Below are positions 1,181 to 16,931 of a DNA stretch of 64,000 nucleotides, in pieces. Location: assembly GCA_000004695.1 (NCBI GenBank), contig CM000152.2, positions 832,001 to 896,000 of the forward strand, in the 5' to 3' direction. The stretch comes from Dictyostelium discoideum. Lineage: Eukaryota. Made by a program: the position numbers and the translations under genes. The number at the start of each line of letters is the position of its first letter. Position 1 is the stretch's first letter. Under the pieces are notes generated by a model that saw only the letters and a list, made by a program, of their open reading frames with translations, searched no databases and was not told the DNA's origin.

Positions 1181-2279
<1,099 letters not shown>

Positions 2280-2370
2280 GTAAGTTATTTTAGTTTTTTT
2301 TTTATTTTATTTATACTAATTTTTTTTTTTTTTTTTTTTTTTCCTCTTTTTCTTTTTTTAAAAAATATAG

Positions 2371-2607
2371 AAAATCCAGCATGTCCAAAATGCAGCATAC
2401 CAGCAACTCGTAGACATGATAAAAGACGTTGGTGGTGCAAACCTTGTTCAAAATCCTTTACTCCATTTAGAAAAGAAAAAAGATTATCAAATGACGAAAT
2501 TCTTTCAAATGTCACACCTCAATGTGGTAGATGTTTCAATCAAGCAACTCGTAAACATGATAAAAGAAGATGGTGGTGCAAATCCTGCCGAAAACCATTC
2601 ACTCCTA
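2371..2607 (+). CDS. Tandem Cys4 zinc-ribbon protein, exon 2/3 (two CPxC-x14-WWCKxC motifs)
   Basis: Acceptor ...atatag|aaaatcc. Two repeats encode CPKCSIPATRRHDKRRWWCKPCSKSFTP and CGRCFNQATRKHDKRRWWCKSCRKPFTP. The GTATGT donor is at 2608. Confidence 0.6.
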
Positions 2608-2621
2608 GTATGTATTGCAAA

Positions 2622-2669
<48 letters not shown>

Positions 2670-2742
2670 ATATTCATGTTTTTTTTCCAATTTCCATTAT
2701 TAACTTTTTTTTTTTTTTTTTTTTTTTTAATTCTATTATTAG

Positions 2743-4091
<1,349 letters not shown>

Positions 4092-4436: not shown

Positions 4437-5470
4437 TTATTGGTAAACTTCTGATTCTTTATTTAATACACAGAATAAAGACATAAATTTATAATTTGGA
4501 ACACCTAATTGAGAATCTAATTTAACGTCACCATTAGCACCACCACCATTTTTACTGACGATTTCAATGAGACTGTTGTAAATTACATTTTGGTAGTTAA
4601 ATTTAACGCCTTGTCTTGAGACTCTTTGATGTTTAATTGAGCCACCATCGACCACTTGAGAAATGGTGAAACAACCGGCATTGGTTGAACTGAAACGAAT
4701 TAAAAATGAGCCAATTGGTTGACCATTTAAACGTGAAGCTGCTTCAGTGGTGTCTAAATCACCATGGAACCATTTTTGAGAGAGAATCTCTCTAACAGTG
4801 TCCATAATTGAATGACCTGGAGCTGGTTCAGGTACTGGACCGAAAAACTCTAAAATCTTACCAAACTTTTCAATGTTTACAACGGTTTCAACACCAGTAC
4901 CTTCAGATTTTGGAGATTCTGCCAAAACTGCTTTCAAACATTTGATATTTAAATAGTCGATTGAAGTTTTATCACATTGATTACGAGCTGGTGCCTTTGA
5001 CCAATTGCAAAGTGCATCAATGAATGCCTCCCAAGGTACCTCTTGCTCGGTGAGGAAAGATTTCTTCCAAAAGTCTCTACCATTCAAATCAGAGATAGCG
5101 GCATCAATGATAACATGATCCAATGCACTAATGATCTCTTTGAAGGATGGACGACTAATTGGTTCTTTATCCCAACATTTTTCAATTAATCTTCTTAATG
5201 AATCCAAACAATCATTTGGAATTGGTGGTCTTTCATGTTTGACACAAACTGCCTCTCTAAATTTCTCTAATTCTCTATGATGAGAAAATGGTTCTTTTCT
5301 TGTTAATATTTCCCATAATACAATACCAAATGAATAAACATCACTTGATTCATTAAATTCTTTAAACATCATAACTTCTGGTGCCATATAAAGTGGTGTA
5401 CCTTTTGCACTTGATTGATCTTTTAACATTTTATGTTTTTGTTTTAATGCACTTAAACCAAAATCACAAA
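4437..5470 (-). CDS. SH2-domain protein kinase, exon 3/3 (DFG...APE kinase lobe plus C-terminal SH2 domain)
   Basis: Acceptor aaaaag|TT gives ICDFGLS, then ...GTPLYMAPE. The C-terminal SH2 signature is WFHGDLDTTEAASRL...GSFLIRFS. The stop is at 4437-4439. Confidence 0.8.
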
Positions 5471-8589: not shown

Positions 8590-9240
<651 letters not shown>

Positions 9241-9406: not shown

Positions 9407-9886
9407 GAAAAGGTTAAAAAGAAAAGAAAAGAGAAAAAGAAAATAAGAAATAGAATAGGAATAAATGAAAAATAAAATTAAAAAGAAAAAAGAAGACAGT
9501 AGAGAAATGAAATAGGATAAAAAAAGAAAAGAAAGAAGAAAAAGAAGAAAATAAAGAATAGGTTTTGGAGGGGAAAAAAAAAGGGAAATGAAAAAAAAAA
9601 TTTGAGAGAAAAAAAAGAGTTGTTCAGATGATAACCAGGGATGGAGTACAGAGGGATAGAGATATTGAGAAATAAAAATAGAGTAGAGAGAGAGAGAGAG
9701 AGATAGGGAGGAATAAGGATTGGGTGGAGAAAAGTAGGAAATGATGGAAAAAGAATAAGATAAAGAGAGTATAGATAGAGGATAGGAATAGAAAATAAAG
9801 GATAGGTTAGAGGTCGAATAGAAGAAAGAGGTTGGGAAATTTTGAATAATAAAAGAAACTCCTATTCTATAAAACTTATTTATTTT

Positions 9887-9918
<32 letters not shown>

Positions 9919-11441
9919 TTATTTTTTTTTTTTTTTTTGTATTTTTTTTTTTTTTTTATTTATTTATTTGTTTTTTTTTTTTTTTATTATTCTTTTTTAT
10001 ATCTTTTTATTTCTTTCAAAAATATATATATATGAATATATATATTTTCAAAAAAAAAAAAAGAAAAGAAAGACAACAAATTTACAAAAAATAAAATAAA
10101 ATTTTACACATAAAATAAAGTATGGGGGGTTTACTAGTTTTGTTTTTAATTTCATTTAACTTTTATTTATTTATTTATTTATTTATTTTAAATCAAAAAA
10201 ATCAACATTCTTCAGGTTCATCAATCTTTAAGAAATACCCAATTCCAAAGTAGGAAATTATTCATCAAAAACGTCAACGCATCCTATCACCCGAACTCTT
10301 TGGCATTGTCCAATTTTTTTATTTTTTTATTTTTTTTTTTTATTTTTTTTTTTTAAGTTTTAATTTATACTGTTTACATTAAAATAGCTTAAACCAAAAA
10401 TAATTCAAAAAATTAAATTGTTAATTTTTATATTTTGAAATTTAATAACCAAAACCGAAATGAAAATTAAATATATATAAAAAAAAAAAAAAAATAAAAA
10501 AAAAAAGTTTTGACCCAAAGTAATTTCCTATTCCAAAAAAAAAAAAAAAAAAAAAAAAACTTGTTTTAAAATTGAGAGTTAGTAGTATCCATTTTTTAAA
10601 TTTTCTATATTATATATATATATATAATAAATTTATGAGTAAAATATATAAATATATATTAAATTATTGGCAAATATTTTATAATAAATGATTTTATATA
10701 TAAATAAATATTATTTGTATATATATATATATATATATTTATAAATTATATAATGATTATTATTAGTAGTATTATTATTATTATTATTATTAATATTATA
10801 ATTGAAATAAGTTTTTTTAAATTTTTTTCTCTTTAAATAGCTTAAAAAATTAAAAAAAAAAAAGTTAAAAAATAAATAAAATTAAAAATTAAATAAAAAT
10901 AAAATATTATTAAAATAAAAGGGGTGGGTTGATCATTATCATAAAACAGATAATAAAAATTTAATAAAAATAAAAGAAAAATGTAATTTTTTTGTCTTTA
11001 ATAATCTAAAACATTACCAGATATCAAAAATAATCCAATTCAATTAACTTTTGGATTTATAAAATAAAAATAAAAATAAAAAAATAAAAAAAATAAAATA
11101 AAAAATTAATAATAATAATTTATAATGAATAAATATAATTTTAATGTAATATGTCACTACATAATATTGAAAGTTTATTTTTAAATTATTAGGGTTAACA
11201 CACTCCTTTATATAAAAAAAAAAAAAGGTTCGGTTAAAATTTTAATTTTTTTTTTTTACTTGTAAAAATATACCATATAGAGACATTCTAGGGGTATATT
11301 AAAAATAAATCTTTTTTTTTCAATTGTTTTATTTTTTTTTTAACCAAACTTATAAAAAAAAAAAAACAAAACAAAACATTAAAAAAAAAAAAAAAACAAA
11401 ACAAAACAAAACATCAAACTTTATAACAAAACAAAAATAAA

Positions 11442-13742: not shown

Positions 13743-16700
13743 ATGTATTATCGTAAATTTGTATTCCTTTTATTAACACTTTGTGTTTTTGGTCAAAGTT
13801 TTGTCCAATCCCGTACTGTAACACTTGATGGAACTTCTTGTGGTAAATGCCAATTGGAGTCAATGATTTCATCATTAGCTGGTGGTGCTTTAAGCTCACT
13901 TGATGATGTTGTTATCAAAGGTGTCCCAAATGCTGTCTACACAATCGCAAAACCAGTTCTCTGTCGTGCAATGAATATTACAAGTGGTACTGTCAATTTA
14001 GCATCAACTATTGATTTAAGAGGTAACTTATGGATTGCATCAGGTGCAAGCATGATCATCACTGGTGCCATTAAAAGTGTTTCCAATGTTTTCGTCACTG
14101 TTGATGGTATCGTTACAGTTAGAGGTGGTGCATCTTTAATTGCCAACTTAAACGTTAATGGTAAATTAAATATTGAAGCAGGTTCATTGACTGTCAATGG
14201 TTTCATTGCAAGTGCAACTGCCTTACCAATTGTTTCAGGTGCAGGTCAATTAATCAACAATGGTAAATGTATTTATAATGCAGTCCCAACCATCCTTGGA
14301 ACTGGTCAATTCATTGTCAATGGTGCCACTCAATTATCAAAAGGTATCACTTGTCAAGACAAAGCAATCCTCTCCATTGCATCAAAAGCAACTGTTGATA
14401 TCCTTGCCAACTCAATCTTTGCCGCTCCAATTGCAATTGCAAGCAATGCTGAAATTAAATTAACCAGTGGTAACCATGTATTCAATGGTGTAAATGGTGC
14501 AACCAACTCCATCATGACCATCGTAAATGGTGCAGTCTCATTAAATGCCCCAAGTACCTGTCACACTGTTGACCTCACTGGTGCTGGTTCAATCTTAGTT
14601 AACTCCAACTCTGTCATCAACACAATTAAAGCCGCAGCAACTGCTCAAGTTAACGTTGCCAAAGCTGGTCTCCTCAACATTAATGGTATTGCTGATATTA
14701 AAGCCATCCTCAACTTAAAAGATACTGCCAACGTTGTCGTCGCTGCCAAAGCCACTGCTAACCTCTTAGGTGGTGTTAATGCTATTGCTCAATCACAAAT
14801 TCAAGCTATGGATAGCTCTATCCTCAACATGGGTAAAACCTGTACTCTCTCACAACCAATCATCATGGGTAAACAAGCTGTTATGAACGCAATGGAAGGT
14901 ACTCACTCATGGACTCAAGGTATCACCTCCCAAGTTAACTCTATCATCAACATCGGTTCAAAATCAAATATCATCGCCAACAAAGATTGTAAATTCGGTA
15001 TCCTCAACCTTGCAACTGGTTCAAATGTAAACATCAACTCTGGTACAACCATCGTCCAAGGTGCCCTCACAACTGCTTCAAACTCTGCCCTCGCTGTTAC
15101 CAACGCTGTCCTCAACTTAAAAGCAACCTCTGTTATTAAATCTGCCTTATCCATCAATGCTCAAGCAAAAGCAATCTTTGATAGCAAAGTTGACCTCTTA
15201 GCCGGTATCACCACTCATATTGATTCAACCATCGATATTAACCATAACGTAAACATCTTAGCTTCATCCACAATTAAATCTGTCACTAACCTCAATGCCA
15301 ATGGTCTCTTAGTATTCGGTGGTTCAAAAGGTGTTAGTCACTCTTGCTCTGGTGATATCACTTCTGATGCCAAATCAACCCTCAATGTTGTTGCTGGTGC
15401 TATTCTCCATCTCGATGGTGATGCAGTTCTTGCTGGTACTCATAAATTAGTTGATGGTTCACAAATCATTGTAAACGGTAATGCTAATATCATCTCTGGT
15501 TTAACCTCAACTGGTTCAGCTCTTTCTCACTTTACTGTTGGTCCAACTGGTAGCTGTGTCCTCGGTAATACCCCAATGCCAACTCTCCCATCATTCCCAA
15601 CCATCCCAGGTTTCCCATCATTCCCATCTGCTTCTCAAAAATCATGGAGTCATCACGGTCACTCAAATAATGGTAACAACGGTAACAACGGTAACAATGG
15701 TAACAATGGTAACAATGGTAACAACGGTAACAACGGTAACAACGGTAACAACAACGGTAATAACGGTAATAACGGTAATAACGGTAACAACGGTAACAAT
15801 GGTAACAACGGTAACAATGGTAACAATGGTAACAATGGTAACAATGGTAACAACGGTAATAACGGTAACAATGGTCAATCATCAGGTTCAAACCAAATGC
15901 CATCAAGCACTATTTCATTCCCATCATCTGGTTCAGCATCATCTGGTTCATTCCCATCATCATCAACTGGTTCAAACCAAATGCCATCAAGCACTATTTC
16001 ATTCCCATCATCTGGTTCAGCCTCATCTGGTTCATTCCCATCATCTGGTTCAGCTTCATCTGGTTCATTCCCATCATCTGGTTCATCAAACAATGGTCAA
16101 ACCTCAGGAAAATCAACCACCACAACTACTACTACTTCCTCAAGCTCATCATCAAGCTCAATTACAAATATCAATGGTAATGTTATCATCCAAACTGGTG
16201 GTTCATTAGATGTTTTGGGTAAATGTAATGTTGGTTCAACTGTTCAAAACTTAGGTTCATTAACCCTCACTCAACCAATGGTCATTGCAGGTAATGCCTT
16301 CACTCAAACAAGTGCTACTGCCGTCTTAAATATGGTCGCTGGTGGTTCAATTGAATCAAAAGTTATTGATTTCACTCATGGTACCATTCAAGGTGTTGGT
16401 GCTCTTAAATGTGGTACTTGTAACTTTGCCAATAAGATCGCTGCTAACCTCAACATTGTTGGTAACGTTAAAATGGCCGCAACTGCAACTGTCTATGCAA
16501 ACATTGATGCTTTAATGTCAATCACCACCTCAACCCAAACCTCAATCTCTCAATCATCAACCAAGACTGTCAACGGTAAGACCACCACTCAATCATCATC
16601 AAGCTCATCATCATCCATCTCTAAACAATTCGTTCCAATGATCGTTTGTTCAGGTACTGCTGATGTTGCTGGTAACCTCAATGTCGTTGCCTCAGAAGCC

Positions 16701-16931
16701 AATCAAGCTAAAATTGCCTCTGGTACTGTATTCAAATTCATCTCAGCCCCAGTTGTTAAAGGTAATGTCTCCTCAGTTAGCTGTCTCACCTCAAGCACTG
16801 CTGCTGCTGCTCAACAAGCTGCCGGTGCTGCTGCTGCTGCTGCCCAAAAAGCTGCTATGGCTGCTGCCTCTAAAGTTTGGTCAATTGTAAATTCACCATG
16901 TAACTGTGAATGTGGATTGAAGAGATTATAA
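13743..16931 (+). CDS. Large secreted Asn/Gly/Ser/Thr-rich repeat protein (1062 aa; beta-helix-like N-domain, (NGN)n, Ser/Gly-rich repeats, Cys-rich C-terminal tail)
   Basis: ATG at 13743 with a signal peptide (MYYRKFVFLLLTLCVFGQSFVQS). There is a single uninterrupted ORF. It contains 27 perfect GGTAACAAC units (NGN), three SSGSNQMPSSTISFPSSGSASSGSFPSS repeats and a poly-T/S stretch. It ends CNCECGLKRL*. Confidence 0.8.
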   Translation: MYYRKFVFLLLTLCVFGQSFVQSRTVTLDGTSCGKCQLESMISSLAGGALSSLDDVVIKGVPNAVYTIAKPVLCRAMNITSGTVNLASTIDLRGNLWIASGASMIITGAIKSVSNVFVTVDGIVTVRGGASLIANLNVNGKLNIEAGSLTVNGFIASATALPIVSGAGQLINNGKCIYNAVPTILGTGQFIVNGATQLSKGITCQDKAILSIASKATVDILANSIFAAPIAIASNAEIKLTSGNHVFNGVNGATNSIMTIVNGAVSLNAPSTCHTVDLTGAGSILVNSNSVINTIKAAATAQVNVAKAGLLNINGIADIKAILNLKDTANVVVAAKATANLLGGVNAIAQSQIQAMDSSILNMGKTCTLSQPIIMGKQAVMNAMEGTHSWTQGITSQVNSIINIGSKSNIIANKDCKFGILNLATGSNVNINSGTTIVQGALTTASNSALAVTNAVLNLKATSVIKSALSINAQAKAIFDSKVDLLAGITTHIDSTIDINHNVNILASSTIKSVTNLNANGLLVFGGSKGVSHSCSGDITSDAKSTLNVVAGAILHLDGDAVLAGTHKLVDGSQIIVNGNANIISGLTSTGSALSHFTVGPTGSCVLGNTPMPTLPSFPTIPGFPSFPSASQKSWSHHGHSNNGNNGNNGNNGNNGNNGNNGNNGNNGNNNGNNGNNGNNGNNGNNGNNGNNGNNGNNGNNGNNGNNGNNGQSSGSNQMPSSTISFPSSGSASSGSFPSSSTGSNQMPSSTISFPSSGSASSGSFPSSGSASSGSFPSSGSSNNGQTSGKSTTTTTTTSSSSSSSSITNINGNVIIQTGGSLDVLGKCNVGSTVQNLGSLTLTQPMVIAGNAFTQTSATAVLNMVAGGSIESKVIDFTHGTIQGVGALKCGTCNFANKIAANLNIVGNVKMAATATVYANIDALMSITTSTQTSISQSSTKTVNGKTTTQSSSSSSSSISKQFVPMIVCSGTADVAGNLNVVASEANQAKIASGTVFKFISAPVVKGNVSSVSCLTSSTAAAAQQAAGAAAAAAQKAAMAAASKVWSIVNSPCNCECGLKRL

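Follow-up and report, generated by a model that had tools for sequence, protein, structure and literature searches.

The first gene of the window (the whole 64,000-nucleotide stretch of DNA that was analysed) is DDB_G0278407, and the pair of Cys4 motifs that it encodes is the already known signature of the GBF family of transcription factors, in which the gene is already catalogued as a GbfA-like member. The assignment to Dictyostelium discoideum rests on a published alignment, not on a database record. By analogy with the developmental transcription factor G-box binding factor (GbfA), of which DDB_G0278407 is a paralogue, the motif pair is very probably the DNA-binding module of the protein. 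The first-pass annotation had described the motifs as being of unknown family. The module is instead the paired zinc finger of GbfA, and DDB_G0278407 itself is listed in the GBF family (PMC6873476); the match to GbfA is the kind of confident hit to a known zinc-finger family that the annotation itself had named as refuting its proposal. What was said there about other families is borne out: the module does not belong to WRKY, FLYWCH, Dof, GRF, RanBP2 or BED, and its scores stay below the cut-off of every Pfam model. The expectation of a lineage-restricted module that probably binds nucleic acid is also supported.

The window is extremely AT-rich (GC content of 0.14-0.30 in most 2-kb bins), and AAT/poly-Asn tracts are abundant in it, as in dictyostelid genomes. 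The gene model, including three short conserved islands outside the fingers and an extension of the finger module, is as follows.

1181-4091, forward strand: whole gene (DDB_G0278407, GbfA-like protein, D. discoideum); three exons, 894 aa, ATG at 1181 and TAA at 4089-4091; spliced model and residue numbering compared with Fig. S9 of PMC6873476
1181-2279, forward strand: exon 1; N-terminal region, low-complexity and rich in Asn, covering aa 1-366 and the first base of codon 367
1829-1846, forward strand: SIESLP motif (aa 217-222), short and conserved, inside exon 1; also seen by eye in P0001 and P0002
2280-2370, forward strand: intron 1; GT..AG, phase 1; missing in the Heterostelium orthologue
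2371-2607, forward strand: exon 2; 237 nt, symmetric phase 1-1, with both zinc fingers and their linker
2608-2742, forward strand: intron 2; GTATGT..AG, phase 1; follows immediately on the FTP of finger 2
2743-4091, forward strand: exon 3, from the spliced gene model
2743-2792, forward strand: conserved stretch that continues the finger module C-terminally, (T)HFNLSENPNMIYVMGG (aa 446-462); included in the blastp alignments with P0001, P0002 and P0003
3378-3440, forward strand: conserved island NSLKLTNNYDIIDSDVVKEGL (aa 658-678); identity of 86% with P0001 and of 10/11 residues with P0002
3921-4064, forward strand: C-terminal island KKASKVILDNSMGALVQFNG…HPNILEKMISIKS (aa 839-886; ILDNS..ALVQ.NG block); blastp E = 2.4e-7 to P0001 and 0.04 to P0002

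Asn makes up 36% of the spliced 894-aa product, and the remainder of the protein outside the fingers is low-complexity, as had been noted in the first pass, with His runs and an Asp-rich patch. Most of the Cys (8 of 13) and Trp (4 of 5) residues of the protein fall within the finger module, which is strongly basic, with a net charge of +14 over 98 aa. Neither the island at aa 658-678, which has no Pfam match in P0001, nor the C-terminal island, for which a Pfam search gave no match, contains a known domain. The three islands (aa 217-222, 658-678 and 839-886), none of which matches a known domain, may be regulatory.

Exon 2, with the translation ENPACPKCSIPATRRHDKRRWWCKPCSKSFTPFRKEKRLSNDEILSNVTPQCGRCFNQATRKHDKRRWWCKSCRKPFTP, carries both units, in accordance with the initial description. 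The translation of positions 2373-2606 on the forward strand is NPACPKCSIPATRRHDKRRWWCKPCSKSFTPFRKEKRLSNDEILSNVTPQCGRCFNQATRKHDKRRWWCKSCRKPFTP, which is divided as follows.

2382-2465, forward strand: finger 1, CPKCSIPATRRHDKRRWWCKPCSKSFTP (aa 371-398); Cys ligand block at 2382-2447; AlphaFold2 block-mean pLDDT of 88-92
2466-2522, forward strand: inter-finger linker FRKEKRLSNDEILSNVTPQ, 19 aa, in frame and in the same exon; AlphaFold2 pLDDT below 50 at residues 39-44 of the 78-residue model
2523-2606, forward strand: finger 2, CGRCFNQATRKHDKRRWWCKSCRKPFTP (aa 418-445); Cys ligand block at 2523-2588; AlphaFold2 block-mean pLDDT of 87-90

Each 28-aa unit, counted from the first Cys to FTP, has the spacing C-x2-C-x14-C-x2-C, and the HDKRRWWCK core is common to both, as originally reported. 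When 30-aa units are compared, fingers 1 and 2 are identical at 20/30 protein and 65/90 DNA positions. Across the six frames of the 64-kb window, the pattern C..C-x(10-20)-WWC..C is found in these two units only. The consensus first proposed was right in its x14 spacing and needs one correction: '(S/F)-x3-ATR' should read '(S/F)-x2-ATR', because only x2 fits x14. Conservation of the module across genera rules out a chance or low-complexity artefact.

The identity of the gene was established by comparison with the published GBF alignment. Forbes et al. (2019; PMC6873476) described GBF as one of four transcription factor families called unique to Amoebozoa, with six genes across five dictyostelid species and one further member reported in Physarum. 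The family was defined via BlastP, for which gbfA served as the bait, and two 'CxxC (RPT1)' domains were aligned in Fig. S9, in each of which a pair of CxxC motifs brackets a KHDK-RRWWCK-type core that is followed by FTP (PMC6873476). The row of DDB_G0278407 reads VNEN·ACPKCSIPATRRHDK--RRWWCKPC·KSFTPF…KRLSN 407 in domain 1 and …QC·RCFNQATRKH·DKRWWCKSCRK PFTPTH·F·LSEN P-NMIY 458 in domain 2, and that of GbfA (DDB_G0288755) reads PKCTRCNEAASWKH·D--RRWWCKECKKAFTPG (PMC6873476). The text of this alignment was machine-read and contains small errors, and the match between rows was judged allowing for these. Our gene model places the last residue of KRLSN at 407 and that of NMIY at 458, which are the numbers printed for DDB_G0278407. 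Since the residue numbers agree exactly despite more than 150 upstream poly-Asn residues, the window gene is DDB_G0278407 and the splice between exons 1 and 2 is validated. The exact 894-aa sequence is without a record in the protein collection, and no D. discoideum protein was among the matches of any search.

In Fig. S9, DDB_G0278407 forms an orthologue group with DPU_G0054980, PPL_09713, DLA_04285 and DFA_08808 (PMC6873476). That the window gene might be gbfA itself was rejected: no match to the published gbfA qRT-PCR primers occurs in the window, even with up to 2 mismatches allowed, so the window gene is a paralogue. Its membership in the GBF family is evident from both CxxC units, from agreement with the 20-finger alignment described below in each of its eight invariant columns, from the significant similarity to GbfA orthologues given below, and from the published listing. 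In the literature searched, DDB_G0278407 is mentioned only in the supplement of Forbes et al. 2019 (PMC6873476).

To collect homologues of the module, the exon 2 translation was compared exhaustively with 1.84 billion cluster representatives using phmmer (HMMER) at E ≤ 1e-3, and 20 proteins matched; a word-index search with the spliced 109-aa peptide, unlike the exhaustive search, gave no match. The top match is P0001, which is PPL_09713 from Heterostelium album (79% identity, E = 2.4e-35), followed by P0002, DFA_08808 from Cavenderia fasciculata (E = 8.9e-28), both of them orthologues grouped with DDB_G0278407 in Fig. S9 of PMC6873476. An Acytostelium subglobosum protein ranks next. Over the module, identity to orthologues of other dictyostelid genera is 56-79%, and orthologues are present in five or more genera of dictyostelids. 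GbfA orthologues were also matched, among them P0004 (KYQ94449.1, annotated 'G-box binding factor' [Tieghemostelium lacteum]; phmmer E = 2.1e-14) and those of Acytostelium and Synstelium; the corresponding blastp E values range from 1.6e-15 to 4e-19. Short one-finger paralogues were found in D. firmibasis and D. purpureum. Three matches are unnamed metagenome proteins (P0009, P0012 and P0015), of which P0009 resembles the GbfA orthologues, while P0012 and P0015 have two fingers with 2 extra residues in the finger-1 loop, as the published Physarum row also appears to have (PMC6873476). Every named eukaryotic match among the 20 is a dictyostelid, and the remaining distant matches are prokaryotic zinc-ribbon proteins. 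An alignment of 20 family fingers gives the signature C-x2-C-x7-H-D-x2-R-[WF]-x-C-x2-C-x3-F, in which the four Cys and the H, D, R and F are invariant.

The window protein shares with GbfA and the GBF family the two C-x2-C-x14-C-x2-C fingers with a [KR]HDK[KR]RW[WYF]CKxCxKxFTP core, the placement of these fingers within long low-complexity proteins, and a distribution in which all named relatives are dictyostelids. However, the two proteins belong to separate orthologue groups that differ in and around the fingers. The residues before the HDK core are A-T-R in both fingers of the DDB_G0278407 group, whereas GbfA has A/S-S/G/C-W (A-S-W or x-[GC]-W). The linker between the fingers is 19-20 aa long and conserved in the DDB_G0278407 group but is variable, Q/P-rich and 30-78 aa long in GbfA orthologues; correspondingly, the distance from first Cys to first Cys is 47-48 residues in all four species examined from the former group and 58-106 residues in the latter. 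The conserved islands outside the fingers are also the DDB_G0278407 group's own.

GbfA, which was isolated because it binds G-rich DNA motifs, drives expression in a promoter-dependent manner (PMC6598861, PMC2257962). The response element of GBF reads (T/G)G(T/G)G(T/G)G(T/G), and closely spaced pairs of it occur in sigN promoters (PMC2257962). On these grounds, the module of DDB_G0278407 is most likely a basic, bipartite, sequence-specific DNA-binding module that is conserved across Dictyostelia. Each 28-aa unit is predicted to be a Cys4 zinc ribbon in which one zinc ion is held by a pair of CxxC 'knuckles' carried on beta-hairpins, and the invariant basic and aromatic strand between the knuckles, [KR]-H-D-K-[KR]-R-W-[WYF], would contact one DNA half-site per ribbon. 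With a short flexible linker between them, the two ribbons would form a strongly basic bipartite module recognizing a pair of short DNA half-sites, as is supposed by analogy with GbfA, with the linker setting the half-site spacing. The Asn/His/Asp-rich remainder of the protein and the three conserved islands may provide regulatory or activation functions. From its better-studied paralogue we infer that DDB_G0278407 binds zinc as well as DNA and that it works through half-sites. Because the linker is fixed at 19-20 aa and A-T-R replaces the GbfA residues, the target sequence of DDB_G0278407 is expected to differ from that of GbfA, and its half-site spacing to be stricter.

The fold of the fingers was assessed by domain searches, structure prediction and profile comparison. 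No Pfam model reaches its gathering score for the window module; the best sub-threshold matches are Ribosomal_L37ae (19.4 bits, cut-off 21.9) and Zn_ribbon_IS1595 (PF12760; 15.2 bits, cut-off 25.4), and IBR_1 scores 14.6-16.4 bits against a cut-off of 27. A sequence search of the PDB returned nothing better than E = 0.16, and sequence and profile searches together nothing better than E = 0.04, the best weak matches among solved structures being the RNA-binding ribosomal ribbons eL43 and eS27. AlphaFold2 was run on a 10-sequence alignment of the two-finger region, and the resulting model (mean pLDDT 81.9, finger blocks 87-92) has only beta strands by DSSP and a disordered linker. The weak Foldseek neighbours of this model are all zinc ribbons (TFS4, Rpb9, RPA12, eL43 and NudC; E of 0.02 or worse), and single fingers superpose on eL43 at approximately 2 Å over 31-33 residues. 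Rpb9 and TFS carry two linker-joined ribbons, and RPA12 likewise carries two ribbons, but Rpb9, RPA12, TFS4 and eL43, although the best structural neighbours, are non-significant ones, and the RNA polymerase, cleavage-factor and eL43 ribbons have no sequence relationship to the GBF fingers and act in another biological context.

Profile comparison by hhalign matched the GBF-finger alignment to the InsA/IS1595-type ribbons of P0017 (97.6%, score 48.8) and to prokaryotic repeat ribbons (97.4%, score 43.6). As a control, 30 shuffles were made in which the four Cys columns were kept fixed and the other columns permuted; these scored at most 17.4 and 21.3, respectively. Since the real scores exceed those of the Cys-fixed shuffles, the similarity extends beyond the Cys scaffold, and since the prokaryotic repeat ribbons match equally well, the ribbon signal is one of superfamily level and does not single out one prokaryotic group. 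We therefore rest the zinc-ribbon placement on the AlphaFold2 model, the weak Foldseek matches and the controlled profile comparisons, by which the GBF finger is predicted to be a divergent Cys4 zinc ribbon that is nearest to the InsA/IS1595 type, its second knuckle being closest to transposase-type ribbons.

Other assignments were tried and rejected. A GATA finger is inconsistent with the x14 spacing (not x17-18), with a model without a helix, and with the lack of any GATA Pfam match at E ≤ 10 (the GATA-1 PDB profile gave E = 0.64). In place of the His pair of a C2H2 finger there are four Cys, and only the second knuckle matches weakly (13 bits, cut-offs 21-27). Membership in eL43/L37ae (PF01780) was dismissed on the score of 19.4 versus 21.9 bits, on coverage of profile positions 35-62 of 85 only, and on the host protein, which is Asn-rich and 894 aa long compared with about 90 aa for the ribosomal proteins. 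Membership in PF12760 was likewise rejected, the window module scoring 15.2 bits and the best family protein (P0004) 20.3 bits against the cut-off of 25.4.

The ribosomal similarities raise the alternative of zinc ribbons that bind RNA, as in eL43 and eS27, in which case the protein would act on RNA and not on promoters. Ribosomal_L37ae, eL43 and eS27 are the top weak matches in Pfam and the PDB, single fingers superpose on the eL43 ribbons as described, and the basic and aromatic RRWW surface would also suit RNA. All of these matches, however, are below cut-off or non-significant (E = 0.04 to 1), the DNA-binding ribbons of transposases are no less similar, and the paralogue GbfA binds G-rich DNA in the promoter context cited above, so that we regard action on RNA as improbable. 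A role in binding protein or ubiquitin, in the manner of small zinc modules such as RanBP2, UBZ or IBR-like domains, could be read from the weak sub-threshold matches to IBR_1 and to zf_UBZ, the latter in 3 of the 20 fingers; yet these matches are below cut-off, the spacing and core motif differ, and both the net charge of +14 and the DNA binding of GbfA favour nucleic acid, which makes this the least credible of the alternatives.

Very unlikely as well, if for different reasons, is that the module is a remnant or domesticated N-terminal ribbon of an IS1595/InsA transposase and the gene a transposon derivative instead of a dedicated transcription factor. PF12760 is the Pfam model that most fingers match (14 of 20, best E = 5.5e-4), and transposase ribbons (PF12760 and Zn_ribbon_InsA, PF03811) are Cys4 modules with a CPxC first knuckle and an aromatic-C-K-x-C-x-K-x-F-T second knuckle; the C-terminal knuckle RY.C.dC.k.FT of the P0017 ribbons resembles RWWCKxCxKxFTP. 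Nonetheless, none of the fingers attains the PF12760 gathering score, the loop of the GBF fingers is 4 residues shorter (x14 as opposed to x16-18), and the transposase ribbons are without the invariant H-D and W-W. Nor is a transposase domain attached to the fingers: Pfam showed neither a DDE transposase nor anything else in those segments of the window protein that were tested, or in full-length P0001. The motif is present once in the window, and the gene has single-copy orthologues in at least five dictyostelid genera with a conserved intron position. Furthermore, prokaryotic repeat ribbons match the profile equally well. The distant phmmer matches include acidic proteins, bacterial or metagenomic, that carry 5-11 repeats of CPxC-x14-[YW][WY]C-x2-C, and one protein in which an HTH domain accompanies five InsA/IS1595-type ribbons. 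The multi-ribbon proteins (for example MGC9367259.1, 'zinc-ribbon domain-containing protein', and MBN1151000.1, candidate division WOR-3) share the C-x2-C-x14-C-x2-C spacing exactly and have an aromatic pair that immediately precedes the third Cys, with an R two residues before that, but differ from GBF fingers in their tandem copy number, their acidic rather than basic character, their bacterial or metagenomic origin, and their consensus Y-x-E-x-Y-x-R-Y-W-C, which contains no HDK and has no FTP tail. An ancient domestication of a transposase ribbon is possible, and it would leave the present function unchanged.

Our results change little in the classification of the gene, as the cloning of the family's founder, GbfA, dates from 1994 (cited in PMC6873476 and PMC6598861) and the gene was assigned to the GBF family in 2019 (PMC6873476). 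They add a predicted place for the GBF finger, which is without a Pfam model or a solved structure, among the zinc ribbons and not among the GATA or C2H2 folds. The DDB_G0278407 group is conserved across Dictyostelia and may be of interest to work on developmental gene regulation in Dictyostelium. A broader proposal, which we consider speculative and on balance rather unlikely, is that the GBF finger branched off in Amoebozoa from the InsA/IS1595 transposase ribbon, making GBF a transcription factor family from a domesticated mobile-element DNA-binding module, and that DDB_G0278407 is a second developmental regulator across Dictyostelia with a motif and spacing distinct from the G-box of GbfA. 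If this were true, the short rigid linker and the A-T-R recognition strand would give DDB_G0278407 its own target motif.

The intron positions and the relationships between fingers bear on how the pair arose. In the first-pass annotation, each repeat was thought to end at an intron with phase-1 boundaries, which was taken to suggest exon shuffling or duplication of a module. Both introns are indeed in phase 1 and repeat 2 adjoins an intron, but repeat 1 leads into the 19-aa in-frame linker within the same exon. The Heterostelium album orthologue has a single intron (L002 4075-4156), in phase 1 and immediately after …KKPFTP, which coincides in position and phase with intron 2 of the window gene, and the T. 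lacteum GbfA gene is intronless. In the genes examined (the window gene, the Heterostelium orthologue and T. lacteum GbfA), there is thus no intron between the fingers. The idea of exon shuffling finds no support, given the location of both fingers in one exon, the occurrence of the Heterostelium intron only after finger 2, and the intronless GbfA of T. lacteum. At the protein level, finger 1 is 79-86% identical to finger 1 of the Heterostelium and Cavenderia proteins, versus 68% to its own finger 2, and finger 2 is 89% identical to the orthologous finger 2, versus 68% to its own finger 1. This grouping rejects a recent duplication of a one-finger exon. Because fingers 1 group together and fingers 2 group together across orthologues, the finger duplication predates the dictyostelid radiation.

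The phase-1 intron lying directly 3' of the finger-2 FTP motif is found at the same position in the D. discoideum GBF-like gene DDB_G0278407 (window 2608-2742) and in its Heterostelium album relative PPL_09713 (L002 4075-4156). Intron 1 of the window gene has no counterpart in PPL_09713, and the T. lacteum GbfA gene (L003) is intronless. Outside the fingers, three short islands of the GBF-like protein are kept in the orthologues, the low-complexity sequence around them being otherwise unalignable:

Window 1829-1846: island SIESLP
Window 3378-3440: island NSLKLTNNYDIIDSDVVKEGL
Window 3921-4064: C-terminal island, the ILDNS..ALVQ.NG block

A Pfam search of these islands returned no match (0/3). 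All three are candidate motifs for regulation or interaction.

None of the protein searches returned a D. discoideum protein. The word-index search with the 109-aa spliced finger peptide gave no match, and an exact look-up of the 894-aa GBF-like sequence in the protein collection found no record. The D. discoideum proteome thus seems to be missing from the collections searched, and therefore the missing self-match does not count against the GBF-like gene model.

Six distant matches from the exhaustive exon-2 protein search (P0007, P0008, P0011, P0013, P0016 and P0018) are acidic, bacterial or metagenomic proteins with 5-11 tandem zinc ribbons each, as in the following gene:

L001 1648-3684: P0008, acidic multi-ribbon protein gene

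The ribbon consensus of this group is CPKC-x5-Y-x-E-x-Y-x-R-Y-W-C-x2-C-x-E-Y, and a Pfam search of the repeat yielded no model matching in register. Both the spacing and the aromatic pair are common to these ribbons and the GBF fingers, and hhalign, run with controls, gave 97.4% for the comparison of the two.

The GBF-like gene is convergent with a kinase/SH2 gene, with ~345 bp between the stop codons:

Window 4437-5429, minus strand: protein kinase and SH2 domain, C-terminal part (Pfam)

The Pfam matches here are PK_Tyr_Ser-Thr (82 bits) and SH2 (47.9 bits). This architecture would fit the Dictyostelium Shk (SH2-kinase) family, and the gene is possibly shkC, as the neighbour of DDB_G0278407.

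Further downstream, the following tracts were found:

Window 8603-9239: (AAGA)n microsatellite, ~157 copies
After the (AAGA)n tract, up to ~9550: other A/G-only repeats
Window 9879-10016: T-rich run, 138 bases

The extreme GC skew (0.76-0.98) around the (AAGA)n and T-rich tracts, and the AT skew that accompanies it, are due to these three elements.

An uninterrupted ORF has a GC content of 0.38-0.42, versus mostly 0.10-0.29 elsewhere in the window:

Window 13743-16931, plus strand: single ORF, 1062 aa
15672-15875, within the ORF: (GNN)n run, period 9
15878-16085, within the ORF: tandem repeats of 84 nt and 33 nt

Its product is enriched in Ala, Ser, Thr, Asn, Gly and Ile, has an N-terminus resembling a signal peptide, and ends in CNCECGLKRL. 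The (GNN)n run matches Pfam Collagen (33.4 bits). Such a composition is unusual for the D. discoideum genome. The protein is possibly a secreted component of a matrix or coat.
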